Shown one piece after another: positions 18,364-46,390 of a DNA stretch of 48,578 bases. The number at the start of each line of letters is the position of its first letter. Position 1 is the first letter of the stretch. The DNA is from Myxococcota bacterium (lineage in GTDB: Bacteria > Myxococcota_A > UBA796): NCBI GenBank assembly GCA_047621685.1, contig JBLHNG010000004.1, positions 1 to 48,578 of the forward strand, given 5' to 3'. The translations under genes and the position numbers were made by a program. A model generated the notes under the pieces. The model was not told the origin of the DNA. It did not search any database and worked only from the letters and a program-made list of their open reading frames with translations.

Positions 18364-19387
18364 TGAGGAACGACGAGCCGGCCAGCGCCAGCCCCCCTGC
18401 AGTCAGGCCGATGGTGAGGATGCGGCTGGTGTTGAACCGGGTGGTGAGGTCGCTCGCTTCCGCCCGGGTCACGGTGTACGGGTCGTCGTTCGCTGCGGTG
18501 ATCTCGGCATAGGCCGGGTTGACCATGGCAAAGTTGACCACCAGACCGCCCGCCACCAGCGCCCCGCCCGAGGCGAGCATGTACGTCCCGAGGCCCGGAC
18601 CGCTGCGGCTGTTGCCCGGATCGGTGATGGCTGGATCGGTGACGGCTGGGTCGGTGACGGCTGGGTCGGTGACGGCTGAGGTCGGATCGACCTCAGCGAC
18701 CGGGTCGGTCTCCTCGACCGGATCCGAGTCGCCAAACGACGGGCCGAATTCCGACCACTCGTCCTCTTCTGCCACCGCAACCACCACTGAGGTGTCCACG
18801 CCATCCGGGCACAGCGCGAACCAGTCGACGGGCTTTGCGAAGTCCGTGACCACGCTGAAGGTGCCCTGCTCGTCGGGGCAGGCGATCTGTGCGAGGTGGG
18901 TGCCGCGGATCACGCTCTCTTCGGGACCGTGCTGCTCCCCGTCGACATAGAGCACTGCTGCCCCAACCTTCTCGGGCACTCCGGTCTCCAGGTAGCCCCG
19001 ACCCTCGACCTCGCCGCGCAGCGCCTCGAACAGGCTGATGAGATCGGAGTCGCCCATGAGATCGGCGTCCCAGGCAAAGTCGTTTCTCACGGTGAGGGCC
19101 TGACGCCAGGCGTCCTCAGCGCGGCCCTTCTTGTTGCCGGTGCCAAACTCCGCAGTGCCCTTGTAGAACCACACCCGGGCCAGCGAGCGGTTGCTGACGA
19201 GCGAATCGGATTCGTCGAGAGACTTCTCGATGAGCTTGAGGGACTTCAGCGCCTCTTTGTGCTCACCAGACGTGATCTGTGCGCGGACCGTGGTGAGGTC
19301 TTCGTCCAGGTTTCCGGCCTCAGCCGACAACGGCACCAGCAGCGCAAGGGCGGCAATGAGCCTCCCTACTCGCAGTCGCTCTCCCAT
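18302..19387 (-). CDS. Exported protein with TPR-like N-terminus and C-terminal hydrophobic segments
   Basis: Signal peptide ending LSAEA; helical repeat region; LYVDG beta segment (PEGA-like); acidic linker; hydrophobic C-terminus; overlaps kinase stop. Confidence 0.75.
   Translation of the reverse strand: MGERLRVGRLIAALALLVPLSAEAGNLDEDLTTVRAQITSGEHKEALKSLKLIEKSLDESDSLVSNRSLARVWFYKGTAEFGTGNKKGRAEDAWRQALTVRNDFAWDADLMGDSDLISLFEALRGEVEGRGYLETGVPEKVGAAVLYVDGEQHGPEESVIRGTHLAQIACPDEQGTFSVVTDFAKPVDWFALCPDGVDTSVVVAVAEEDEWSEFGPSFGDSDPVEETDPVAEVDPTSAVTDPAVTDPAVTDPAITDPGNSRSGPGLGTYMLASGGALVAGGLVVNFAMVNPAYAEITAANDDPYTVTRAEASDLTTRFNTSRILTIGLTAGGLALAGSSFLIDAPVRPVIGLGHLGVAGRF
18618..18677. repeat. 4 x 15-bp tandem repeat encoding (A[VI]TDP)4
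   Basis: GGATCGGTGAYGGCT / GGGTCGGTGACGGCT units. Confidence 0.85.
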
Positions 19388-21414
19388 TCACTCGCTCCCT
19401 GATCCACCTTGAAGGTGTACCGACAGGTCTTTTCGGGGACAGACTCGATGGTCGATCGAGCGGTGCTGTCTGCCTTGATCTTCGTTCGATAGACCCCGGC
19501 TGGCAGGCCGACCAGCTCCAGCTCTCCGGTGCCGTCCCAGGACTGCTCGAACTCACCGGTGGAGGCATTGAGCTTCACGCTCTGGACGGCACCCTCGACC
19601 TTGAGGATGACGGTCCCGGCATCGGGACCGACCACACCAAGCTCGATGCGCTGCCCGGGGATGCCCTCGATCGCCGGAGCGGCGACATCGGGTGGGGTCT
19701 CGGGCTGGGGATTGGTGGTGTTGGGCTTGCTGAACACCTTCAGCGCGACCACCGTGGCACCACCGCCAAACACCAACATCAGCAGCAGACCGAGCAGGAT
19801 CCACTTCCCCATTCCGCCACCGCTTGAAGGCTCCGGCTTTGGAGACTTCGGGGGAGCGGTACGGTCCGAGGATGGGGCCACGGCACCAGGGCCTGTGGGC
19901 TTGTTGCCAATGCTTGGGGAGATGGTCTGGTTGAACAGCTTCGCCGGGGGCGGCGGGGCGGCGGCCGGCTCCGGAGGGGGCTCGATGATCGTCGCCGCGG
20001 TCGGATCCGCGAACACCGGCACGGATGACTCGGGAAGCAGCGGCAGGACGGGCTCTGGCTGGGCGAACGCTGGCTGGGCGAACGCTGGCTGGGCGGGCTC
20101 CGACTGGGCGGGCTCCGACTGGGCGGGCTCCGACTGGGCGGGCAGCGGCGGCTGGGCGGGCAGCGGCGGCTGGGCGGGCTCAAGCGACTCGACAGGCACA
20201 CCGGGTCCAGGCACGGACATGCTCGGATCGATCGGGGCGTCCTCGAAGGCCATCGTGGAAGATGCCGGGGGAGCCGGCTCTGCTGGCGCGGTGTCTGCAG
20301 GCGTCGCGGCAACAACGGGCGGATCCGAGGTGTGGATTGAGCCCTCTACGAAGCCCCCAGAAGATGCCGGATCCGCAACGGAGGGTGGCTCCGCCTCGGC
20401 GGGGTCCATGGTCCAGTCCCCGTTGATCCCGGAGATGTCCTCGAACAGGGTGCTGCCAGCAAGGGGATCGACCGGGCCATCGGCGCTGATGAGTCGATCC
20501 CGGCACGGGGTGACGACCTCACGACAGAACCGCCGGAGGGAGCCGTCGTAGATCTCTTCAGAGAGGGCCTCCATGAGCTCAAGGGCCTGCCGGGCGTCTG
20601 GACGCTCGGTGGCCTCGTACTTCAGGAGGAGGTCGAGGGTCTGGCGGACCTGGTTGGCCCGGGTCTCGTCGAGATCGGACACATCGAGCTTTGCCATGCG
20701 CTCAATGTGGCTCTCGTCGTAGCGCTCCGGGCGGATGTGGATCTTGCCGAACGGCTCCAGGGTCAGCAGCTCGTAGAGTGTGACGCCGAGGGAGAAGATG
20801 TCGCCGGAGGGGGCGTCTGGATCACCGAGGAGGCGCTCGGGGGCCATGTAGGCCTGGGAACCAAACGCCAGGGCCTGGGTCTGGGCCTCGCGGTTCTCGA
20901 AGCGGGCCTGGGCGGTGCCGAAGTCGAGGACCTTGATGTCACCGGCTGCGGTCACCATGACGTTGCTGGGCTTGATGTCGCGGTGGATCAGGTTCAGGGG
21001 CTGACCGCCGCGCAGGGGCTCGCGGTAGTACGCCGCCTCCAGGGCCGATGCGGTGGCCGCGATCACCTCGAAGCAGACCCGACGTGGGATCGGCACCCCT
21101 GTCTCGGCGCTGTAGTTGATCAGCGACTTCAGATCGACACCGTCGAGGTACTCCATGATGACGGCGCACTGGCCGTTGAGGGAGGTGAGATCCTCGACCC
21201 GGATGATGTTGCGGTGGTGGAGCAGCCCCAGCACCCGGGCTTCATCGCGAGAGCGCTGGACGATCTCCTGGTGACCAAGCCACTTTCCATGGAGCAGCTT
21301 GATGGCAACGACGCTGGAGAAGTTGTTGTCGGTGACCATCTCCGCCATATACACCTTCCCGAAGGTTCCTTCGGAAAGCTGCTTCAGGAAGCGAAATCGC
21401 CGACGTGGCTCCAT
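19366..21414 (-). CDS. Membrane-anchored Hanks-type Ser/Thr protein kinase
   Basis: SEGTFGKVY, VAIK, HRDIKPSN, DFG, YMAPE, DIFSLG; Pro-rich linker; TM WILLGLLLMLVFGGGATVVAL; extracytoplasmic beta domain; start placed at MEPRRRF. Confidence 0.93.
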   Translation of the reverse strand: MEPRRRFRFLKQLSEGTFGKVYMAEMVTDNNFSSVVAIKLLHGKWLGHQEIVQRSRDEARVLGLLHHRNIIRVEDLTSLNGQCAVIMEYLDGVDLKSLINYSAETGVPIPRRVCFEVIAATASALEAAYYREPLRGGQPLNLIHRDIKPSNVMVTAAGDIKVLDFGTAQARFENREAQTQALAFGSQAYMAPERLLGDPDAPSGDIFSLGVTLYELLTLEPFGKIHIRPERYDESHIERMAKLDVSDLDETRANQVRQTLDLLLKYEATERPDARQALELMEALSEEIYDGSLRRFCREVVTPCRDRLISADGPVDPLAGSTLFEDISGINGDWTMDPAEAEPPSVADPASSGGFVEGSIHTSDPPVVAATPADTAPAEPAPPASSTMAFEDAPIDPSMSVPGPGVPVESLEPAQPPLPAQPPLPAQSEPAQSEPAQSEPAQPAFAQPAFAQPEPVLPLLPESSVPVFADPTAATIIEPPPEPAAAPPPPAKLFNQTISPSIGNKPTGPGAVAPSSDRTAPPKSPKPEPSSGGGMGKWILLGLLLMLVFGGGATVVALKVFSKPNTTNPQPETPPDVAAPAIEGIPGQRIELGVVGPDAGTVILKVEGAVQSVKLNASTGEFEQSWDGTGELELVGLPAGVYRTKIKADSTARSTIESVPEKTCRYTFKVDQGASEWESDCE
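20056..20181. repeat. Mixed 15/18-bp tandem repeats in the kinase linker
   Basis: Encodes (PAQPPL)2 (PAQSE)3 PAQ (PAFAQ)2 on the minus strand. Confidence 0.8.
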
Positions 21415-21790
21415 GATCGCGCTGGCTCCAGTTTGTGTCCTCAGGGGAGGACGCGCTGGCAGACTATATCGCATTCAGGGTCCAGTTGACGTTCCCCCAC
21501 AGATCGGAGTCAGCGCTGTGCCGGGGCTACTCGTCCGGGGTGCAGTGCAGCCAGCCGGCTTCCAGCTCCACCGTCCCTGAGGTGCCGTCGCAAAACCAGC
21601 ACGACTGGTCCCGACTGTCGACGAAGCCAAGCTGTGCGGTGCCCTCTGGTGGGGCTCGCCATCAAAGAAGGTCACCGGGGCTTGTCAGGCTGAGGACGAG
21701 GATGATGACGTGCTGTCGGCGCATCTGAGCTCCGATTCGAGGGACGGTCGTCACTGAAGCATGCTGGACCGAGAAGCCGTCTTGGGACAC

Positions 21791-22498: not shown

Positions 22499-24106
22499 CT
22501 AAAGCTCCGGAACGTTGATGTCCTGACAGTAGCCGTCACCGAGCCAGTAGTCCTGCCAGGACTTCGGGAAGTCCGAGGGGAAGTGCTTGGCGTAGAAGCA
22601 GACCGCGAGGAGGTGCTGGGCGACGATGCTGTAGCCATAGTGCTGGGTCTGGTTCGGGATGAGCCCGCCGCAGGTCGAGCTGTAGAACTTGGCAACGTGG
22701 GGGTCGTTGACGGTCGGATCGCAGAGGATGTTGGCGCCGTAGTAGTCCGGCGCCCGCTCCTGGTTGGTGCGCTTGAGGTGGCGACCATAGGCGGTGAGCA
22801 TGTTGAGGCCTCGGGGCCGGCCGCCGTCATGGACCGAGTCGTCGAAGCCGGCGTTGTGGGACAGGATGGTGATCTGGACCGCAGAGCCGGACTCCTGGGT
22901 GGTGGGGTGATCCCAGGCCTCACGCAGCAGGTTGATTGCGCCGTCGGTGCTGCGGGCGAGATCCTGGCGTTCGTCGACCACGCAGCCCCTCTTCAGAAGG
23001 CAGACCGCAGATCCGGTCTCTGCGTTGTAGCTGACATACTCCGCGTTTTTTAGCACGCCCCTGGGCACGTAGTCCTTCGTCGGACTCCAGGTCCCGGTGC
23101 GCAGCTTGCACTCGCTGATCTCCAGGCCGACCCGGCGGCCAGTCTCCGGCATGAACTGCCACCAGCCCTCCGCACAGACCGGCGAGGTGATGCGGGAGCG
23201 GTAGCCGGACTCCCGATAGGGGATCGCGGCGAACACGGTCGGCAGCTCTGCCTTGGTGAGCTGCTCGGTGACATAGGCGTAGTCCTCGTGGATCTCACCG
23301 AGCCTCGACCAGAAGCTCCGGGCGCTAGCGTGCTGCTTCATCGAGAAGACGACGTACTTAAAGAAGATGTCGTCCCGGCGGGCTGTGCTGTGCAGCTCAT
23401 CCCACTCTGCCGCCTGGGCATTGGGGGAGACCACGAAGGCGTCAAATGCTCCCGTCATCCCGGTCAGCAGGGTCTGCTCGATGGTGTTGACCTCCTCGAT
23501 CTTGACCACATCGTAGGACTCCTTGCCCTCTTCCACCGGCCCCAGCGCGATGCGATCAGGGCGGAGGATCTCAACGGCGGGAATGGCGAGGCCGACGACG
23601 GTGAGCATCGCGACGATCAGCGAGGCGGGGATGAGCCAGCGGGGCACGCCGCCCTGGGTGTCGAGGGACTCGATGCGGATCGGCTGCACACCGTTGCTGC
23701 TCTGGGCGGCTTCCGAGAGGATCTGCCGCTGCTCCCAGACGCCCAGCCGGCGGCACTCCATGAACGAGATGGTCGCCCCTCGACCCGGGGCACCGAGGTG
23801 GAAGACGTCTCCGGGAGACAGGTGGACCGGGCCACGGAGGGTCTGAATTTCGGTCCAGTCGACGCTCTCATGGGGTGCGACCCGGACCTGGTTGGTGCCG
23901 ACCGGAGCGATGGCGACGGTGCCGCCATCGTAGGCCGTGATCACCGCCTGTCGGTTGTCGAGGCCGCGGTAGCCATCCAGCAGCAGTCCGCCAGGGCCGG
24001 GGCTCGCCCCCATCCGGACCACCGGGCCGCGGCACACGATGTCTCCCTGGTAGGACAGCGGTCCGCCGAGAAACCGCAGCACGACGTCCCACCGCTCCTG
24101 ACTCAT
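22499..24106 (-). CDS. FHA-like / TM / MltD-type lytic transglycosylase fusion
   Basis: SLT motifs AIPYRESGY (catalytic Glu), AEGWWQFMPETG, VDERQD, ILSHNAG; central TM; N-terminal beta domain VVRMGA...DNRQAVI...GTNQVRV...LSPGDVFHLG resembling a degenerate FHA. Confidence 0.8.
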   Translation of the reverse strand: MSQERWDVVLRFLGGPLSYQGDIVCRGPVVRMGASPGPGGLLLDGYRGLDNRQAVITAYDGGTVAIAPVGTNQVRVAPHESVDWTEIQTLRGPVHLSPGDVFHLGAPGRGATISFMECRRLGVWEQRQILSEAAQSSNGVQPIRIESLDTQGGVPRWLIPASLIVAMLTVVGLAIPAVEILRPDRIALGPVEEGKESYDVVKIEEVNTIEQTLLTGMTGAFDAFVVSPNAQAAEWDELHSTARRDDIFFKYVVFSMKQHASARSFWSRLGEIHEDYAYVTEQLTKAELPTVFAAIPYRESGYRSRITSPVCAEGWWQFMPETGRRVGLEISECKLRTGTWSPTKDYVPRGVLKNAEYVSYNAETGSAVCLLKRGCVVDERQDLARSTDGAINLLREAWDHPTTQESGSAVQITILSHNAGFDDSVHDGGRPRGLNMLTAYGRHLKRTNQERAPDYYGANILCDPTVNDPHVAKFYSSTCGGLIPNQTQHYGYSIVAQHLLAVCFYAKHFPSDFPKSWQDYWLGDGYCQDINVPEL

Positions 24107-28979: not shown

Positions 28980-29942
28980 TCAGGCCACCTGAGCGTTGCA
29001 GACCGCACAGAACCGCTGGTCACCCCGATACACCGCGACCCGGGCCTGGTAGCAGCCGGAGTGGAAGTGCTGGCCGCAGTTGAAGGGGCAGTCCATGCGC
29101 ACCTCCGCGGTCACTGAGCCCCTGCAGATCCCACAGTCCACCACCGCGACGGCCTCCTGGGCGGCCTCGATCGTTGGGGCCTGCTCCGGCAGCGGCTCGA
29201 CAGCCCCCCACCACGCCAGCCAGCCGACGAACACGCCGAGGAAGCCGGTGATCACGCCGGGAGCCACGTCTCGGAAGATGACCTCAAAGGTCGGGGGGAC
29301 GGCTCGACCAGGGAGCGCGGTGAGCACGCTGGGGGCAAGCAGGTCGGCGGCGGCGGTCACCGCGAGGGTCAGGGCCATCATCATGATGAACAGCACCAGC
29401 GCAGTGAGCGCGACCCGGGCGCGGTACGCCTGTCCGCCCCAGGCATGGCGGGCGAAGTTGCAGCAGAGCAGCCCGAGTCCGACGCCCGGCAGCAGGACCA
29501 CTCCCAGCTGTCGGGACACGCTCAGGGCTGCCCCCCAGCCCACCGCCCAGGCCACCACGAGGCCGACAGTGCTCATCAACGCGGGGATGCCGCTGCCGGC
29601 GTAGCCAAAGTTCTCCGGGTAGTCTGGTGGCTGCTCCAGCACCCCGCTGCCATGCGGAGGCTCGGGGAGGAGGTAGACCAGCTCTCCGTCGATGACCCCG
29701 AGCTGGCTGAGGGTCTCCTTGTCGCCCAGCAGCCGACCGCGTGCCCTCAGCCAATACAGGCGCCGCTGGCCGTTCTGCCAGTGGGAGTCCAGGCCTGCGT
29801 CACGGACGATGCGCTGGGTGAGGTCCTGCGCGGGCAGGAAGGTGGGCACCTGGAGGTCGAGGGTGAACGACTGCATGTCGACGACCTGCACCCGAAGCGT
29901 GACGGTCTGATCGCCCTCTGCAAAGCTGCCCGCGTAGTCCAT
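28980..29942 (-). CDS. EsaB/YukD-like ubiquitin-fold + 4 TM + C4HC3 RING/PHD-type zinc-finger protein
   Basis: LDLQVP...LLGDKETLSQLGVIDGELVYL (YukD-like); four hydrophobic helices; CGIC-x11-CPFNC-x4-HSGC-x14-CAVC. Confidence 0.8.
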   Translation of the reverse strand: MDYAGSFAEGDQTVTLRVQVVDMQSFTLDLQVPTFLPAQDLTQRIVRDAGLDSHWQNGQRRLYWLRARGRLLGDKETLSQLGVIDGELVYLLPEPPHGSGVLEQPPDYPENFGYAGSGIPALMSTVGLVVAWAVGWGAALSVSRQLGVVLLPGVGLGLLCCNFARHAWGGQAYRARVALTALVLFIMMMALTLAVTAAADLLAPSVLTALPGRAVPPTFEVIFRDVAPGVITGFLGVFVGWLAWWGAVEPLPEQAPTIEAAQEAVAVVDCGICRGSVTAEVRMDCPFNCGQHFHSGCYQARVAVYRGDQRFCAVCNAQVA

Positions 29943-39679: not shown

Positions 39680-42600
39680 CTACCACCATGAGTCCTGATC
39701 CCCTCCGCCGTCCAGGCTCCGCTCCCGGCGAAGCTCGCCCATGCGCTGGACCTCTTCGAGGACCTCACGTCCAAGGGCGTCGATGTCGATCTGGCGCTTG
39801 TTGCCTCCGCCCTCGGGCTGAGTCGGAGAGGACTGTCCCTCGGATCGTGCGGAGGAGCTGTCCTCTGCCATCCGAACCCCCTGGCGGGCGGTGTCCCGAC
39901 CCTGGTGCTCGGCGAGGTGGATGAGATCTCGGAGCCGCTTCGCCAGCTTCATGACGCGACCGTCTCCCACTCCAGCACCACCCTGTGCGGTGGAGAGGGG
40001 GCGGAGTCCGGTGAAGCCCCGGACGACCCGAGCGGAGCTGCGGGCCTTTCGGGGTGAGCGCACAGTGCGGGTGGTTGCTGCGGTCATCTGACGACCAGAC
40101 GGTGCCGCGGGACCGGCACTGCTGCTGCTGGCCTCGACTTTCGCGCTCTCTCGGCGGAGCTGTTGGATGACCTGAATGACCGGAGACGGCATCCGGGTGA
40201 GCCGGGGTGCTGGATCGTTGGAGCGCTCGAAGATCACCCGCACGACCTCCTCGACATCCGAGGCACGCGCCAAGGCAGCGATGAGGCCCTGGTTGGCGGA
40301 GGACGGACGGGGGAGAAGCTCGCCAGACGAGCGCCGGGCCCAGCTGGGCAGCGCGGTGTTGATGGACTGCGCTTCGACGGCTTCGAGGGTCCAGGACAGC
40401 GGCAGACGCTGCTCTGGAGAAGCTGTACGGGACGGTCGCCGCTCACCGACAAACACGCCACCGTCAGTGCGGTGGATGGTCGGGAGGGGGCGGGTGTAGG
40501 AGGACTCCACCACACCACCGTCCTCAATCCGACCGCTCCGAGAGAAGCGGGGGCGACTCCAGGGCGTGGGCGGGGTGCCCTCAGCAGAGCGAGGCGCGCT
40601 CTGGCGACCGGTCACGGCAGGGATGGCGGCATCAAACGGAGCCTCTGCGGACCGGGGAGCCGCGAGGATGACGCCGTCGGCCGTGGTCTGCAGGCGGGGA
40701 CGGCGGGTGAGGCTTTGCGTGTGTGGCTGACGCCCACCGATGTCTCGGGTGAGTGCTGCGGGTCGTCCCTCTTCCTGGCCCCACTGCTCACGCCCCCACT
40801 GTGCGCGACTCGAGAGCCGCTCCAGGGGACGGTCGGGGGAGCGACGAGAGGCTGCAGTGCGGATCGTCTGCTTCCCGCCAGCCGCTCTGGTGACCGAGGC
40901 GGTGGCCCGAGTCGCTGACGAAGTCGTCGGTGGAGTCACCGTGGACGACGGGGAGAAGATCGATGGAAACCCAGGGGACTTCGTCAGCGCGGGGGATGCC
41001 GGGGCAATCGCTGGCTCGGGAGCGCGGGACTCCTCGGTGACGATCACCACCTGGGGCGGCGCGCTGGGGGCATAGCTGAGCAGCCGTCGACGGACGCGAA
41101 CCTCGACCGTGGCCTGAGCTGAGGAGGAGGCTGCCCGAGAGGAGGCCGTGCGTCGGCTGGCCGTCTGGCCAGTCACCGTCTTGCCAGCCACCATCCGGCC
41201 AGTGGCTGGCCGACTTCCGCGGCTGGCGACAGCTCGACGGGTGCTGGTCGGGCTTGCTTGCCGGGCGGAGTAGCCGACAAGGGGACTGGAGTCGAAGCGT
41301 TGGCTGGCGGCGATGATCGCAGCGACCCGACGCTGACGGGTCGTGCCGCCAGTGACAGACAGGCTCGGCGCGGCATCCGACGGTTTCCGTGTGGAAACAG
41401 CCGGCGGGGTTGTGGAGCGCGGCTTTTTGCTTGGAGTCTCGTCACGCCGGGTGTCGGTGGCGGGTGTACCGGAGAACCATGAGCTGGCGGAGGCACGTCT
41501 CGGTGGGGTGGTCCCCTCACCCTCAGTGGAGGTCGAGACCTCGGGTAACGGGGCCGAGGAGGGAAGGACCTCTGCCGGGGCGTAGACCGCCATCCGACGC
41601 GTGCTGCGTGCCTCTGATGAGGCCGCTCCCACCTTCTCAGCGAGCTGCGGGGTTGTGGCCCGGGAGGCGTCGGTGAGCGGAGATGCTTTGATGAATGGAG
41701 ACGCTTCAGTGAGCGGGGCTCCTGAGGGGTCCGTCTGCCTTGTTGGTGCAGCCCGGGTCACCCGAGGCAGGAGGGAGCCTGCTGTCGGGGTTGTGGCTTC
41801 CATCCGGGCTGCGAGCCGTCGGGTAGAGGCAATCCGGACCGGACGATCGGAGCGTGCCGCAGGCAGCGCTGAGGGGCGGGGAGGCGCGTGACGGGGCGGG
41901 GTGCTCCGGGGGATGGCCGAGCGCGCAGTGATCGTACCGATGGCCTGGCGACTGAGCACTCGCTGCATCGGAGCCGGAGCGGCGCTTGGGACCACCCGGG
42001 TGATGGTCTGTCGCTTCGATGAGACGGTTCGGGTGACCACTCGGGGCAGCACGGAACCCGGTCGAGCCTCAATGACACGGCCGCGTGCGGCGGCCTGGCG
42101 AACCGGGGACGCCGCTTCTGGTGTGGCCTTTGTCTGAGCGGGAGCCGGCTCAATGAGCTGCGGGGTGATGGTCGGGAGGAGCGAGCGGCGTGCGCGAGCC
42201 CGAACCGGTCGAACCGGACGCGCGGACTCGATGCTGATGGAGCTGCTGGGCGCTGGACGCCGGGTAAGCCGCCGAGCAGCATGGGCGCTTGCAGTCTCTG
42301 CCCCCGACAGGCGAACCGGGGAGGCCGAGATGGCCACTGAAGACGGTCGGGAAGCCCGCTGGAGGATCTCCGCACGGGCTGAGCCCGATGTGCTGGAGTC
42401 GTCTGCTCTGAGTCCCCGGGTCAGCGCACGCTGAGTGAGCGATCCGGGGTGGGATGATCGGGGTTGAGCAGGACCATCAGGGGCTCGGGGGGTCGTCGCG
42501 GACGCTCGACGGCTGGCAACCCGACGCCCGGGGGCCGACTGCGGAGTCCGCGGAGTCGCGCCTCTTGGGGTCGCAGCACGCGAGGTGATTGCGGCTCGAG

Positions 42601-43648
42601 GTGCGGCAGGGCGAGACACCGTCGGCGCGGCGGTCTCCGGCTGCATCATCGGACGCGATGGCTCCACCGCCTTCATCATCGGGGAGCTGTGCAGGACCGG
42701 ACGGAGCCCTCGGCGGCGCTCCTGTCGGCTGGCAGAGGCCATGCGCCCCGCAGCAACCGTGACCGGGGATGCGGCGTGGTCTGGCAGCGCACGCTCGATC
42801 TCAACCCGGGCAGCCCGATTGGTCCCGCCCAGGCTGCGCACAACCTTTCGCACACGACGGACCTGCTCGGGAGCCGGCAGGGCCTCGATCTCTTCGATCA
42901 GACGGACCAGTCGGCGCGCGGGACGCCCAGAAGACCGCACCAGACGCCGAAGCGGCTCGACGGCATCACTGGAGGCATGATTGAAAGAGGCAGTGGACTG
43001 GAGGCGATGACCTGCACGCTCCATCGGACGGGAGCGCTGGGACCTGGCCGGGACCTCTCGCACGCTGAGTCGGGGCTCGGCCAAGACCTTGCGCACGATG
43101 ATCTGCGAACGGGACGGCTTCTCCGCAGTTCTCGCCGGAGATGTCGGGCGAGAGAGCCAGGCGGCCTGCCCGGAGACGCTGCGAGCGGTGCTGCCACTCC
43201 ATCCCCGCACTGTGCGGATTCCAGGCTCCTCCGGCTCGACCTCTGGGGTCGGTGTGGTGGGCTCTGGCAGGAGCATGTCGCCATCAGAGATGGTCAGCAG
43301 CCCGGAGAGGAAGCGAGGGCGGCTCGACGACTCACCCGGCCACAGCCGACGCGCAGCCTTGACTGGCCGACGTTCGCCATAGCGACTGGCATAGCGCTCC
43401 AGGCGCTTCTGACGGCGGAGTCGTGCCTGCCCGAGGCGTCGGAGCATCTGGTAGAACGGCTTTCCGGAGAGGTAGACGAAGTCTCCACTCCCCTCACGGA
43501 CCTCGGGAGCAGTGCTGCCCTGCAGCCAGGGGTCTGCAAGCCCAAACCGTTCATAGAAGGCAGGCGAAAGCCCCATGCGCGGACGACGGACTGAGCGCTT
43601 CTCAAGGCGCTTCAGCAGCCGAGCTCCGATCAAGTTTCTCTCACTCAT
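39680..43648 (-). CDS. Large Arg/Ser/Pro/Ala-rich low-complexity protein, candidate tape measure or lumenal cargo
   Basis: 1322-aa uninterrupted ORF with GAGG RBS between the tube and LysM genes; C-terminal helix IDIDALGREVLEEVQRMGELRRERS. Confidence 0.75.
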   Translation of the reverse strand: MSERNLIGARLLKRLEKRSVRRPRMGLSPAFYERFGLADPWLQGSTAPEVREGSGDFVYLSGKPFYQMLRRLGQARLRRQKRLERYASRYGERRPVKAARRLWPGESSSRPRFLSGLLTISDGDMLLPEPTTPTPEVEPEEPGIRTVRGWSGSTARSVSGQAAWLSRPTSPARTAEKPSRSQIIVRKVLAEPRLSVREVPARSQRSRPMERAGHRLQSTASFNHASSDAVEPLRRLVRSSGRPARRLVRLIEEIEALPAPEQVRRVRKVVRSLGGTNRAARVEIERALPDHAASPVTVAAGRMASASRQERRRGLRPVLHSSPMMKAVEPSRPMMQPETAAPTVSRPAAPRAAITSRAATPRGATPRTPQSAPGRRVASRRASATTPRAPDGPAQPRSSHPGSLTQRALTRGLRADDSSTSGSARAEILQRASRPSSVAISASPVRLSGAETASAHAARRLTRRPAPSSSISIESARPVRPVRARARRSLLPTITPQLIEPAPAQTKATPEAASPVRQAAARGRVIEARPGSVLPRVVTRTVSSKRQTITRVVPSAAPAPMQRVLSRQAIGTITARSAIPRSTPPRHAPPRPSALPAARSDRPVRIASTRRLAARMEATTPTAGSLLPRVTRAAPTRQTDPSGAPLTEASPFIKASPLTDASRATTPQLAEKVGAASSEARSTRRMAVYAPAEVLPSSAPLPEVSTSTEGEGTTPPRRASASSWFSGTPATDTRRDETPSKKPRSTTPPAVSTRKPSDAAPSLSVTGGTTRQRRVAAIIAASQRFDSSPLVGYSARQASPTSTRRAVASRGSRPATGRMVAGKTVTGQTASRRTASSRAASSSAQATVEVRVRRRLLSYAPSAPPQVVIVTEESRAPEPAIAPASPALTKSPGFPSIFSPSSTVTPPTTSSATRATASVTRAAGGKQTIRTAASRRSPDRPLERLSSRAQWGREQWGQEEGRPAALTRDIGGRQPHTQSLTRRPRLQTTADGVILAAPRSAEAPFDAAIPAVTGRQSAPRSAEGTPPTPWSRPRFSRSGRIEDGGVVESSYTRPLPTIHRTDGGVFVGERRPSRTASPEQRLPLSWTLEAVEAQSINTALPSWARRSSGELLPRPSSANQGLIAALARASDVEEVVRVIFERSNDPAPRLTRMPSPVIQVIQQLRRESAKVEASSSSAGPAAPSGRQMTAATTRTVRSPRKARSSARVVRGFTGLRPLSTAQGGAGVGDGRVMKLAKRLRDLIHLAEHQGRDTARQGVRMAEDSSSARSEGQSSPTQPEGGGNKRQIDIDALGREVLEEVQRMGELRRERSLDGGGDQDSWW

Positions 43649-44176: not shown

Positions 44177-45355
44177 TTATCCACCAAGTCGAAGATCGAT
44201 AACAATCTGCTCGGCAGTGCCGACTGGCTTCATGCGAATCTCGACGTTGACCTGACCAGCATCGAGGAGGTATCGGGGATTGTTGCTGGTGTTGCAGGTG
44301 ACCGCATACTCCTCGCCAGCCCGCTCTCCGGCCAACAGTCCGGCACGCCAGAACTGCTCCAGCCGGTAGCGCACGTCGCGCTCAAGGACATCCCAGAGGT
44401 GCGGATTGTTGGTCTCAAACACCGCCCACTCATTGTCCCGGCGCAGCTGCTCGGTGATCATGCTGATGATCCGACGGCTGTTGATGAACCGATACGCCAG
44501 ATCTGTGCTGAGGGTCCGAGCACCAAAGACCACAATCCCACGACCAGCCTGGAGGATCAGCGGGTTGATAGAGGCCTCGGCCATGTCACCGGCCTCGGTG
44601 AAGTCCAGGTCCAACTCCAGGTGAGTCACACCGTTTACCGGGACATTCGCCGGTGGCCAGACCACACCATACTCCCCTTTCTCCTTCTCGATTCGCGCGT
44701 AGATTCCCGCCAGTGAGGCGCTGGGGGGGAAGGTGGTTCCCCCCTCAAACAGCCAGGGGTAGTACAGCGCACCATAGGAGCGGGTGTGTGTTTCTCGTGC
44801 CCGAAAGTCCCGAACCCACCGAACGAGCAGGTCGCCGTGGAGTCCGCGGGGCGGATCGAGGATGAGGAAGCGGTTGTTCATCTCCCGGCAATGAACAAGC
44901 AGTAGATCGTAGACATGCTCGGCATCGGTGTGTGCCTCACCGAGTCGGCTCACGCTCACTGGCAGCCAGGCCAGGGCCGGTGAAGCCAGCACCGCGATGT
45001 CGTCCTCCGCACGGAGGCGGTCGAGGAGCGGAACGAAGATCTCTGTTGCGGTGGCCGGGGTCTCAAAGTCCACCGTGGAGCGAATGCACACCCCAAAGAG
45101 GAAGAGGGCATCTCCGTTGTTGACGAAGAAGTCATGCACTGCACGCACAGAGGCCTGATCGAACCGGCGCCAGTGGGGGTGCTCCCAGAGATCGGGCTCA
45201 CGCCGCAGTGGGATCTCAACAAAATCCCCGGCCGTCATCCCCTCAGGCCACTTTTCCTCTGAAATGAAGCCGATAAATGCAGTCACGTCGCATCGGACCA
45301 GCTCGCGAGAGCGGACCGGAAGCCGGCCGTGTTGGACCACAATTCCTGGACGCAT
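44177..45355 (-). CDS. Tail sheath protein 2
   Basis: PGIVV, FFVNNG, RFLILDPP, ALYYPWL, PPAN, VFGARTL, WAVFETN. Confidence 0.92.
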   Translation of the reverse strand: MRPGIVVQHGRLPVRSRELVRCDVTAFIGFISEEKWPEGMTAGDFVEIPLRREPDLWEHPHWRRFDQASVRAVHDFFVNNGDALFLFGVCIRSTVDFETPATATEIFVPLLDRLRAEDDIAVLASPALAWLPVSVSRLGEAHTDAEHVYDLLLVHCREMNNRFLILDPPRGLHGDLLVRWVRDFRARETHTRSYGALYYPWLFEGGTTFPPSASLAGIYARIEKEKGEYGVVWPPANVPVNGVTHLELDLDFTEAGDMAEASINPLILQAGRGIVVFGARTLSTDLAYRFINSRRIISMITEQLRRDNEWAVFETNNPHLWDVLERDVRYRLEQFWRAGLLAGERAGEEYAVTCNTSNNPRYLLDAGQVNVEIRMKPVGTAEQIVIDLRLGG

Positions 45356-45373
45356 GGACACCCTCTAAGCGAA

Positions 45374-45401
45374 TGAAGCGGCTCCCAAGGAAGCCGCTTC
45401 A
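45374..45401 (-). terminator. Intergenic stem-loop (weak terminator or mRNA-stabilising hairpin)
   Basis: TGAAGCGGCT/AGCCGCTTCA 10-bp perfect stem; only a short interrupted T tract (TTCGCTT) follows on the minus strand. Confidence 0.5.
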
Positions 45402-45426
45402 GGAAGGTCTGTCTGGATGAACCAGA

Positions 45427-45591
45427 TCAGCGAGGTGCGTTGATCCTCTCATTGATCTTGGAGATCTCTTTGACCCAGGAGTGTCTCTCCCGATGGGAGA
45501 GGTCCAGGATCGAGTCCCGATCCCAATGAAAGTGGTAGGCAATGAACGCTACCTCCTTGAAGATGTTCTCCAAGGGGTAGCTTACGATTCC
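45427..45591 (-). CDS. DUF6760-like domain, probably translated only as a -1 frameshift extension of the chaperone
   Basis: SYPLENIFKEVAFIAYHFHWDRDSILDLSHRERHSWVKEISKIN; no ATG; overlaps the chaperone stop in the -1 frame. Confidence 0.8.
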   Translation of the reverse strand, partial: GIVSYPLENIFKEVAFIAYHFHWDRDSILDLSHRERHSWVKEISKINERINAPR

Positions 45592-45594
45592 CCC
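45548..45594 (-). promoter_or_regulatory. Putative -1 programmed ribosomal frameshift signal
   Basis: Slippery G GGG GAA (45594-45588), 6-nt spacer TCGTAA, hairpin GCTACC-CCTTG-GAGA[ACA]TCTT-CAAGG-A-GGTAGC (45581-45548). Confidence 0.75.
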
Positions 45595-45947
45595 AGGCGG
45601 CCGAACTCCCGCTCGAAGCGAGCACCGCACTCGGGACAGGCCACTGTGATCGTAGCTTCGTCCTCGTTGATCCGATTATACATCTCCTCAAGGAACCGAA
45701 GGTCGCTCGCGAACAGGTTCTCGATGACCCCGGTGTTGACCTCCTTGAGGTTGCCGAGCTGAGTAATGACTCTGCTGAGCAGAACGATGATGAGGTACGC
45801 CCGGTTGCGCTGGACGCGGAGATCATTCAGTGGAACGATCTCGTCCTTGGCATTGGCCAGTCGCATGACACCCTCACGATGGAGGTTGCCTTCCTTGTCG
45901 ACGTATCCACGCGGCAGGATGAACTCGTACTCGGTCTTCAGATCCAT
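45582..45947 (-). CDS. Tail assembly chaperone (gpG/gp41-like) with C-terminal CxxC
   Basis: TEYEFILPRGYVDKEGNLHREGVMRLA..DEI...LLSRVITQLG...LFASDLRFLEEMYNRIN, CPECG; TAATG coupling to the tube gene. Confidence 0.85.
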   Translation of the reverse strand: MDLKTEYEFILPRGYVDKEGNLHREGVMRLANAKDEIVPLNDLRVQRNRAYLIIVLLSRVITQLGNLKEVNTGVIENLFASDLRFLEEMYNRINEDEATITVACPECGARFEREFGRLGES

Positions 45948-46390
45948 TAGGCTCTCTCAACCTTCTCGACGGCGATCTCGATCTTCTCGATGGCCATGGC
46001 GGAAGCGTCGGAGTCCATCTCCGGCACGTTCCACTTGCAGGGCCAGCCCTCGAAGAAGTTGTAGCGTGCGACCTCGGACTGTCCGTCCTGGTCGAGGATG
46101 ATCACCGAGCCGGCACGACGATCGATCTTGCCGTCCTCAATGTTCTTTCGCCACTGCCACAGGTCGTCGGTCGCGGTGTAACCACGCTCGAGGACGATGT
46201 TGGCGTAGGTCGTGCGACCCGGCTTCTTGCGGACGACCAGATCGTTACCCTGCTTGAACTCGATGACCTCGGTCTCTGAGTCCATGCCGGACACGGACTT
46301 GAATCCGCCGACGATGATCTTGTTGTCATTGATGACCCCCTGGATTTCCAGGAGGAAGTGGTATGCACCGAACAGTTCCTCTGTAGGCAT
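45947..46390 (-). CDS. Major tail tube protein (T4 gp19-like)
   Basis: GGFKSVSGM, KKPGRTTYANIVLERG, RYNFFEGWPCKW, AIEKIEIAVE; GAAGGAG RBS. Confidence 0.95.
   Translation of the reverse strand: MPTEELFGAYHFLLEIQGVINDNKIIVGGFKSVSGMDSETEVIEFKQGNDLVVRKKPGRTTYANIVLERGYTATDDLWQWRKNIEDGKIDRRAGSVIILDQDGQSEVARYNFFEGWPCKWNVPEMDSDASAMAIEKIEIAVEKVERA

Follow-up and report, generated by a model that had tools for sequence, protein, structure and literature searches.

A probable programmed -1 frameshift between a chaperone gene and DUF6760 in contractile injection system loci

The frameshift of tail-chaperone genes is itself well known, including in the contractile phages P2 and Mu, and its conservation among long-tailed phages was reportedly described by Xu, Hendrix and Duda in 2004. 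In lambda, the binding partner of G is the tape measure and that of the T part is the tube protein. Here we analyse a 48,578-nucleotide (nt) stretch of DNA from a Myxococcota bacterium (contig JBLHNG010000004.1 of assembly GCA_047621685.1; the whole stretch is hereafter called the window) that carries genes for a phage-tail-like contractile injection system (CIS). One of these genes encodes a chaperone of 121 amino acids (aa), and its 3' end is overlapped in the -1 frame by an open reading frame (ORF) containing the Pfam domain DUF6760 (PF20546). Comparison of this junction across loci indicates that the chaperone gene very probably makes a short and a long form by programmed -1 slippage, with DUF6760 as the slipped-frame extension and not a separate gene.

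The lambda pair G/GT follows the same logic and synteny, with two nested products and a slip site just ahead of the stop codon of the first ORF. There is, however, no sequence similarity to lambda, the signal here belongs to an injection system of cells instead of a virus, and sheath-like and second tube genes here separate the chaperone from the tape-measure-like ORF. In phage P2 (NC_001895 annotation), the gene is flanked by those for the tube and the tape measure and gives short (E) and -1-extended (E+E') products with a common N terminus; the E' extension domain is homologous to DUF6760. The slip site is T TTT TTG in P2 but G GGG GAA here, P2 E belongs to PF10109 whereas the window chaperone has no Pfam family, the two G parts show no detectable relationship by sequence, and a zinc ribbon is present here. 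The identical heptamer is found in actinophages and corynephages. According to PMC10885494, GGGGGAA is the sole sequence of the 'fivetwo' motif across about 1000 SEA-PHAGES motifs, with re-pairing via G-U, and PMC5506516 predicts for corynephage phi16 an internal Shine-Dalgarno (SD) sequence, GGGGGAA and a downstream pseudoknot, the same three-part signal as here. An earlier note on this stretch, made from the sequence alone, had named GGGGGAA as a recognised phage slip site, and these papers agree with it. The window pair does not come from a sequenced phage, because tblastn searches with the chaperone and DUF6760 against 50,697 phage records gave no match. No description of this frameshift in CIS loci turned up in a literature search, and the term 'DUF6760' occurred in 0 papers; the available sections of the CIS papers checked do not mention a frameshift, and those on Streptomyces and haloarchaeal CIS (PMC10066040, PMC11566945) place these genes, in the same sections, only among proteins of unknown function or leave them unmentioned.

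Reading frames and slip site at the junction

The chaperone ORF ends in CTG GGG GAA TCG TAA. In the -1 frame the junction reads GGG GGA ATC GTA AGC TAC CCC TTG GAG and stays open to a TGA; a Pfam scan places DUF6760 on this frame at profile positions 6-53 of 89, and with 67 bits the match passes the family gathering cut-off of 27. This frame contains no ATG. It has a GTG 36 nt 5' of the heptamer (45628-45630) and a TTG at 45571-45573, which sits within a hairpin stem. The earlier note had described this chaperone end, the -1 overlap, the missing ATG, the GGGGGAA, and a 15-bp hairpin 6 nt past the heptamer that buries the only nearby TTG; each was found where it had been placed, and the hairpin is more stable than its shuffles.

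On these signals we propose that most ribosomes would terminate at TAA and release the 121-aa chaperone ('G' form), while a minority would shift back one base on G GGG GAA (45588-45594). The P-site tRNA-Gly would then re-pair from GGG to GGG and the A-site tRNA-Glu from GAA to GGA via a G-U pair, and the slipped ribosomes would continue in the DUF6760 frame to give a 173-aa fusion ('GT' form) whose junction would read Leu-Gly, then Gly or Glu, then Ile-Val-Ser-Tyr. The slip would be aided by the 15-bp hairpin 6 nt downstream, and perhaps also by an SD-like GGGAG and the adjacent stop codon. On the model of lambda G/GT and P2 E/E+E', the two forms together would coat the large tape-measure-like protein and bring in tube subunits. 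The analysis shows the sequence signals, how they are conserved and that DUF6760 is homologous to P2 E'; that the slip occurs, at what rate, and which partners the two proteins bind is what we infer here.

Conservation was assessed in 126 loci, comprising the 30 best loci of a phylum search (L001 being the window locus), the 80 best of 444 genome_contigs relatives, whose records are mostly metagenome-assembled genomes (MAGs) of Myxococcota or 'Deltaproteobacteria', and 16 plasmid loci. Phylogenetic breadth was taken from plasmid records because a profile search for related loci gave close relatives only. These plasmid loci stem from four Streptomycetaceae, Rhodococcus, three cyanobacteria, Ralstonia, Paraburkholderia, Burkholderia, Rhizobium, Paenibacillus, Treponema and two haloarchaea; genera among the 14 bacterial ones include Streptomyces, Streptantibioticus, Brasilonema, Nostoc and Pseudanabaena. 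Within the phylum of the window, PF20546 is present in 172 of 401 sampled genomes, and the genome of the window itself has a single copy.

The earlier note had expected both a -1 overlap and a GGGGGAA-like heptamer to recur in related loci, and both do. Relative to the chaperone, DUF6760 is in the -1 frame at every one of the 126 loci, and 124 (110 Myxococcota-type and 14 bacterial plasmid loci) have G GGG GRR in frame within 60 nt of the chaperone stop: GGGGGAA in 118, GGGGGAG in five and GGGGGGA in one. The carriers span Myxococcota-type MAGs, Actinomycetota, Cyanobacteriota, Alpha- and Betaproteobacteria, Bacillota and Spirochaetota. In the chaperone frame, the stop codon follows the heptamer at a distance of 0 nt in 23 loci, 3 nt in 99, and 15 and 24 nt in one locus each, and is TAA in 74, TAG in 26 and TGA in 24.

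There is next to no probability that gene decay or faulty assembly produced the split and that DUF6760 is unexpressed here. Such an origin would fit three database proteins (P0131, P0252 and P0217) that look like mis-called frames across the junction, but the arrangement recurs in all 126 loci, in several phyla and with the domain intact, and this conservation excludes gene decay. RNA-library contigs from two studies also span the junction, at 45435-45602 and 45585-45708, with no indels; contigs of this kind are uninformative on transcription, strand and rare variants, and they leave 45000-45407 uncovered. Their summed depth, at a likeness of at least 90%, peaks at 45561-45611, with 462 in X1 versus 20-130 in most other covered bins. 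The peak covers the heptamer and hairpin and may arise where contigs from many relatives pile up on the best-conserved nucleotides.

Codon choice at the slip site departs strongly from expectation. The residues vary (LGES, SGES, PGEW, LGEV, TGGS, TGER, SGEL, LGEA and AGEL), though the codon preceding the heptamer ends in G in every locus, whether it encodes L, P, S, T or A, and the Gly codon is always GGG, although GGG makes up 10-34% of local Gly codons. In the 17 loci examined, the joint expectation of the slip-site codons, given the amino acids and local codon usage, is 0.009-0.185 per locus. This pattern points to selection on the slip site at the nucleotide rather than the protein level. 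Past the heptamer, the -1 frame is under protein constraint, because Ile-Val is kept when the codons of the chaperone frame change: loci with TAG TCA instead of TCG TAA still read Ile-Val (ATA GTC versus ATC GTA). A conserved run of the -1 frame, G-[IVA]-[IV]-x-Y, starts at the heptamer, while 5' of it this frame is unconserved and meets a stop within 36 nt in 28 of 124 loci. In one Myxococcota-type locus (L028), a -1-frame TGA lies one codon ahead of the heptamer; this upstream TGA and the 23 loci with a stop codon abutting the heptamer confine any frame change to the heptamer.

The same region bears on the question of whether DUF6760 is instead a small separate gene, whose translation depends on coupling to the chaperone stop or on re-initiation there, with the G run as its ribosome-binding site. 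RefSeq annotates a separate 'DUF6760 family protein' with 4-nt overlaps, the start codon overlaps the chaperone stop as ATG (ATGA) in Burkholderia, Rhizobium and both haloarchaea or as GTG in Streptomycetaceae, and by our own reasoning GGGGG could pair with the anti-SD via one G-U. Yet no ATG, GTG or TTG occurs between the heptamer and profile position 12 in 25 of 124 loci, and none anywhere in the open -1 frame in 11 of them (L004, L027, L028, L050, L058, L079, L097, L108, Brasilonema, Pseudanabaena and Treponema). A GTG at +9 is confined to loci with the stop TCG TGA. The TTG of the window, the only one nearby, is buried in the stem and is replaced by CTT or CTG in other loci, and both the P2 E' similarity described below and the G-[IVA]-[IV]-x-Y run begin at the heptamer, 5' of those starts. 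Annotators resorted to ATA in Nostoc (L115 1504-1506) and ATT in Pseudanabaena (L119 1504-1506), which we take as a sign of a pipeline finding no ordinary start; the Brasilonema gene is unannotated in RefSeq. A stand-alone gene thus appears improbable as the general explanation. According to the earlier note, a conserved start of its own and a random relative frame would have spoken for such a gene, whereas the frame is constant and starts are variable or missing, with no initiation signal conserved across loci. The ATA and ATT starts in RefSeq fit its suggestion that DUF6760 is mis-annotated as a stand-alone gene; in the haloarchaea, Burkholderia and Rhizobium, which have their own ATG, stand-alone translation may also occur.

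Downstream hairpin and upstream SD-like word

The hairpin of the window exceeds chance expectation. Its 81-nt fold has a minimum free energy of -30.1 kcal/mol (z -2.94), with none of 200 dinucleotide shuffles equally stable. For the 66-nt fold, dinucleotide shuffles give z -3.90; when the DUF6760 frame is recoded synonymously z is -3.13, and 0.7% of 300 recodings are as stable. The same 66 nt, counted from the last base of the heptamer, were folded in 23 loci with 300 synonymous recodings and 200 dinucleotide shuffles each; codon usage for the recodings is a rough estimate from all ORFs of at least 150 aa on the same strand. In 19 of 21 bacterial loci the native sequence is equalled in stability by no more than 5% of its recodings, with Nostoc borderline at 0.050.

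The stem is built from different sequences in different lineages. It reads GCUACC...GGUAGC in Myxococcota-type loci and cyanobacteria, ACGUACGCG...CGCGUACGU in Streptomycetaceae, AUGAAGGCC...GGCCUUCAU in Rhizobium and Burkholderia, and GCCGCC...GGCGGC in Treponema, and in all these lineages it starts 0-7 nt past the heptamer. Pairs were counted in a fixed register for 77 of 86 distinct junction sequences, omitting L111, L112, L115 and L121-L126, whose stems lie in another register. In this count 90.4% of cells are paired versus 34-58% in slid controls, and changes on both sides occur in 17 cells versus 6.2 in shuffles, with 0 of 500 shuffles reaching 17.

An identical fusion could also arise by ordinary translation if RNA polymerase stuttered on the five G residues and added one, since a single inserted G gives exactly the -1 frame, and homopolymer slippage is known in other bacterial genes. 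Known runs for transcriptional slippage are, however, much longer than five G, and a conserved hairpin 6 nt downstream is a hallmark of ribosomal rather than transcriptional slippage. The RNA-library contigs carry no indels at the site, a weak argument as contigs drop rare variants. We consider polymerase stutter very unlikely.

An SD-like word (AGGAG, GGGAG or GGAGG, about 11 nt 5' of the heptamer) lies 7-20 nt 5' of the heptamer in 114 of 124 loci. In E. coli the cellular gene dnaX likewise has a heptamer flanked by an SD-like element on its 5' side and a hairpin on its 3' side, and the word seen here may stimulate the slip in the manner of the dnaX stimulator. The outcome would differ, in that the slip truncates the protein in dnaX but would extend it here. 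In the close clade, the SD-like stretch also codes for conserved Lys/Arg-Glu residues.

Relationship of DUF6760 and the chaperone to phage proteins

The E' extension of phage P2 carries PF06528 (Phage_P2_GpE, E 2.1e-22). Aligned to E' with hhalign, the DUF6760 profile scores 94% (E 1.3e-7) over 39 columns, from four residues past the P2 slip site, versus 0.13% and 0.15% for the controls P2 E and P2 Ogr. When a DUF6760 profile hidden Markov model (HMM) was scanned against all plus-strand frames of P2, T4 and Mu regions, the E' frame was the top match (E 0.0067). PF06528 itself is matched weakly by two of nine DUF6760 sequences (best E 0.0079), under the curated cut-off. By these profile comparisons DUF6760 is a remote homologue of P2 E' and not a PF06528 member by the Pfam threshold; the alignment to E' makes it a relative of a domain that is reached only by -1 frameshifting. 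The proposal of the earlier note that DUF6760 is the T domain gains direct support from this homology to a slipped-frame extension.

In a protein atlas, DUF6760 lies beside the Gp51_C (score 0.91) and Phage_P2_GpE clusters. The DUF6760 model consists of three helices (predicted local distance difference test (pLDDT) 88.3); a Foldseek search of BFVD with it gave nothing at E <= 0.001, and four weak matches (E 1.2-1.7) to tail or tape-measure chaperones or a hub assembly catalyst are suggestive only. The DUF6760 HMM failed to pick up the Mu FS-gp41 extension (E 6.4), and sequence searches of the PDB with chaperone and DUF6760 profiles gave 0 matches. Complex prediction for the tube protein with DUF6760 scored 0.00, which gives no answer either way. 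Scanning 270 database proteins with the DUF6760 HMM identified one of 167 aa (P0239) that is a clean in-frame fusion of the chaperone N-domain with DUF6760 at 111-160 (Pfam E 3.8e-10). A search for longer DUF6760 homologues produced six candidates, none of them scored, weak evidence that annotated fusions are rare. DUF6760 is probably not the spike plug Cis6 (Cis6/Afp6/Pvc6), because the Halogeometricum cluster has a DUF6760 gene yet lacks a cis6 homologue according to PMC11566945.

For the chaperone, resemblance to phage proteins is seen at the level of fold only. It has no Pfam or NCBIfam family, and Pfam matched none of 26 diverse homologues. Homologues number in the thousands (119-125 aa, 84-93% identity; 7,997 of 8,000 scored candidates passed), and some are named 'phage tail assembly protein' in their sources. 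The AlphaFold2 model (pLDDT 88.7) matches, by Foldseek against BFVD, predicted viral proteins annotated as 'Baseplate hub assembly protein, bacteriophage T4-like' or 'Baseplate protein' (E 5.3e-8 to 1.8e-4), and the Mu 'Probable tail assembly protein FS-gp41' with E 2.5e-3 and TM 0.55. Against the PDB, Foldseek gave nothing at E <= 0.001, prophage YqbN (3klu) ranking third with E 0.9. By sequence, the short product falls outside Phage_TAC_7 (PF10109), the family of P2 E and Mu gp41. T4-like hub assembly proteins are matched by the model with E 1.4e-6 and 4.4e-5, but hhalign against T4 gene 51 (L128 6480-7226) is weak, at 17% for the chaperone and 0.14% for DUF6760. T4 gp51 and related proteins may represent a chaperone with the same two parts held in a single frame; the title of a cited paper states that T4-like chaperones are not made by frameshifting.

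Some genomes carry tandem copies of the chaperone, either in two genes or within single proteins of 244-252 aa that hold two copies of the domain (P0121, P0122, P0125, P0130 and others). The two copies of the Brasilonema locus (L113) lie at 743-1097 and 1126-1507, and the slip site ends the second only.

Lineage variation, gene order and implications

Several observations count against a programmed slip as the source of the long form. The support is comparative throughout. The 110 Myxococcota-type loci are mutually close (76-100% identity in DUF6760) and therefore not independent, so that roughly ten separate lineages carry the weight. GGGGGAA is a non-canonical site, unlike an X XXY YYZ heptamer. 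The hairpin test failed in Paenibacillus (0.243) and S. clavuligerus (0.093), and the covariation score of the stem register (0.071) is below that of a control slid by +1 (0.109). Covariation is therefore only modest support within the close clade; the earlier note had looked to hairpin covariation, and across phyla the stem is kept with different sequences. The G part shows no sequence-level link to P2 gpE (0.2% by hhalign) and belongs to no Pfam chaperone family. Initiation at the stop overlap would be feasible not only from the ATGs of Burkholderia, Rhizobium and both haloarchaea but also from a GTG in the four Streptomycetaceae loci and wherever the stop is TCG TGA, and DUF6760 may be translated on its own in some lineages. 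Finally, both haloarchaeal loci lack GGGGGRR and a significant hairpin (recoding fractions 0.81 and 0.61).

These two loci, from Halogeometricum (L117) and Haloferax (L120), combine the ATGA-overlapped ATG with a canonical heptamer that lies in frame four codons ahead of the stop and reads G GGA AAT in L117 and G GGA AAC in L120. A Gly-Asn-Pro motif is also found at the end of two chaperones of haloarchaeal type that the protein search recovered. The haloarchaeal chaperone also carries a long acidic tail.

A wider reading, which we put forward tentatively and regard as rather unlikely, is that the two-domain chaperone is made in three interchangeable ways, depending on lineage: by a GGGGGAR slip in most bacterial systems; by separate initiation of T, possibly with a lambda-type G GGA AAY slip, in haloarchaea; and as one in-frame polypeptide in P0239 and perhaps the T4 gp51 family. 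If this were true, the T domain could work either in cis or in trans, and a tunable slip rate would set the amount of tape-measure-like effector loaded per particle; the frameshift would also be among the most widespread chromosomal -1 frameshifts in bacteria.

Programmed slippage at the chaperone junction, the reading that we prefer, would assign a function to a Pfam family of unknown function and would correct a systematic annotation error, namely the stand-alone DUF6760 of RefSeq with its sometimes ATA or ATT starts. For work that rebuilds or engineers particles in another host, or recodes the operon, an altered G run or stem would be expected to lose the long form. It would also add a large, cellular, cross-phylum set of -1 frameshifts, with natural stem variants, for studies of the non-canonical GGGGGAA.

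On the minus strand, the sheath and tube genes are followed by the 121-aa ORF with DUF6760, the second sheath-like and second tube genes and then a 1322-aa low-complexity ORF, after which come genes for the tube-LysM initiator, the VgrG-like spike and the Baseplate_J and Tail_P2_I proteins (Table 1). The window thus shows the order typical of tail-chaperone frameshifts, two overlapping ORFs between tube and tape-measure genes. In Streptomyces, Brasilonema and Treponema a large ORF comes directly after DUF6760. By analogy, the 1322-aa ORF is a candidate for a tape-measure-like protein served by the chaperone; in Streptomyces a comparable place is occupied by Tme, an effector related to tape measures (PMC11126660). 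Pfam and NCBIfam scans of the 1322-aa ORF gave no match.

Table 1. Positions of the junction elements and neighbouring genes in the window
Feature	Position	Strand	Basis
Tail sheath gene, 603 aa	46469-48280	minus	Pfam Phage_sheath_1 and Phage_sheath_1C
Tube gene, 147 aa, immediately 5' of the chaperone	45947-46390	minus	PF06841 Phage_T4_gp19, E 6.5e-35
Chaperone ORF, 0 frame, 121-aa 'G' product, C-terminal CxxC zinc ribbon	45582-45947	minus	ORF list
SD-like GGGAG, 11 nt 5' of the heptamer, possible stimulator	45606-45610	minus	sequence
Putative slip site G GGG GAA, chaperone frame	45588-45594	minus	sequence
6-nt spacer TCG TAA, containing the 0-frame stop (45582-45584)	45582-45587	minus	sequence
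Hairpin, 15 bp, one bulged A, one G-U, 6 nt past the heptamer	45548-45581	minus	sequence and folding
-1 frame extension, putative 'T' part, DUF6760, heptamer to TGA 45427-45429	45427-45594	minus	PF20546, E 1.6e-18
Second sheath-like gene, shorter, 394 aa	44177-45361	minus	Pfam sheath domains
Second tube gene, 149 aa	43661-44110	minus	PF06841, E 5.6e-36
1322-aa Ser/Arg/Ala/Pro-rich ORF, directly 5' of the tube-initiator and spike genes	39680-43648	minus	position
YukD-like, Ser/Thr kinase and SLT genes, downstream	28980-29942, 19366-21474, 22499-24106	minus	

The 1322-aa ORF is the largest of the cluster; its DNA is very G+C-rich, and the reading frame is that of the ORF list. Genes for a YukD-like ubiquitin-fold protein, a Ser/Thr protein kinase and an SLT transglycosylase-domain protein lie downstream of the structural genes.

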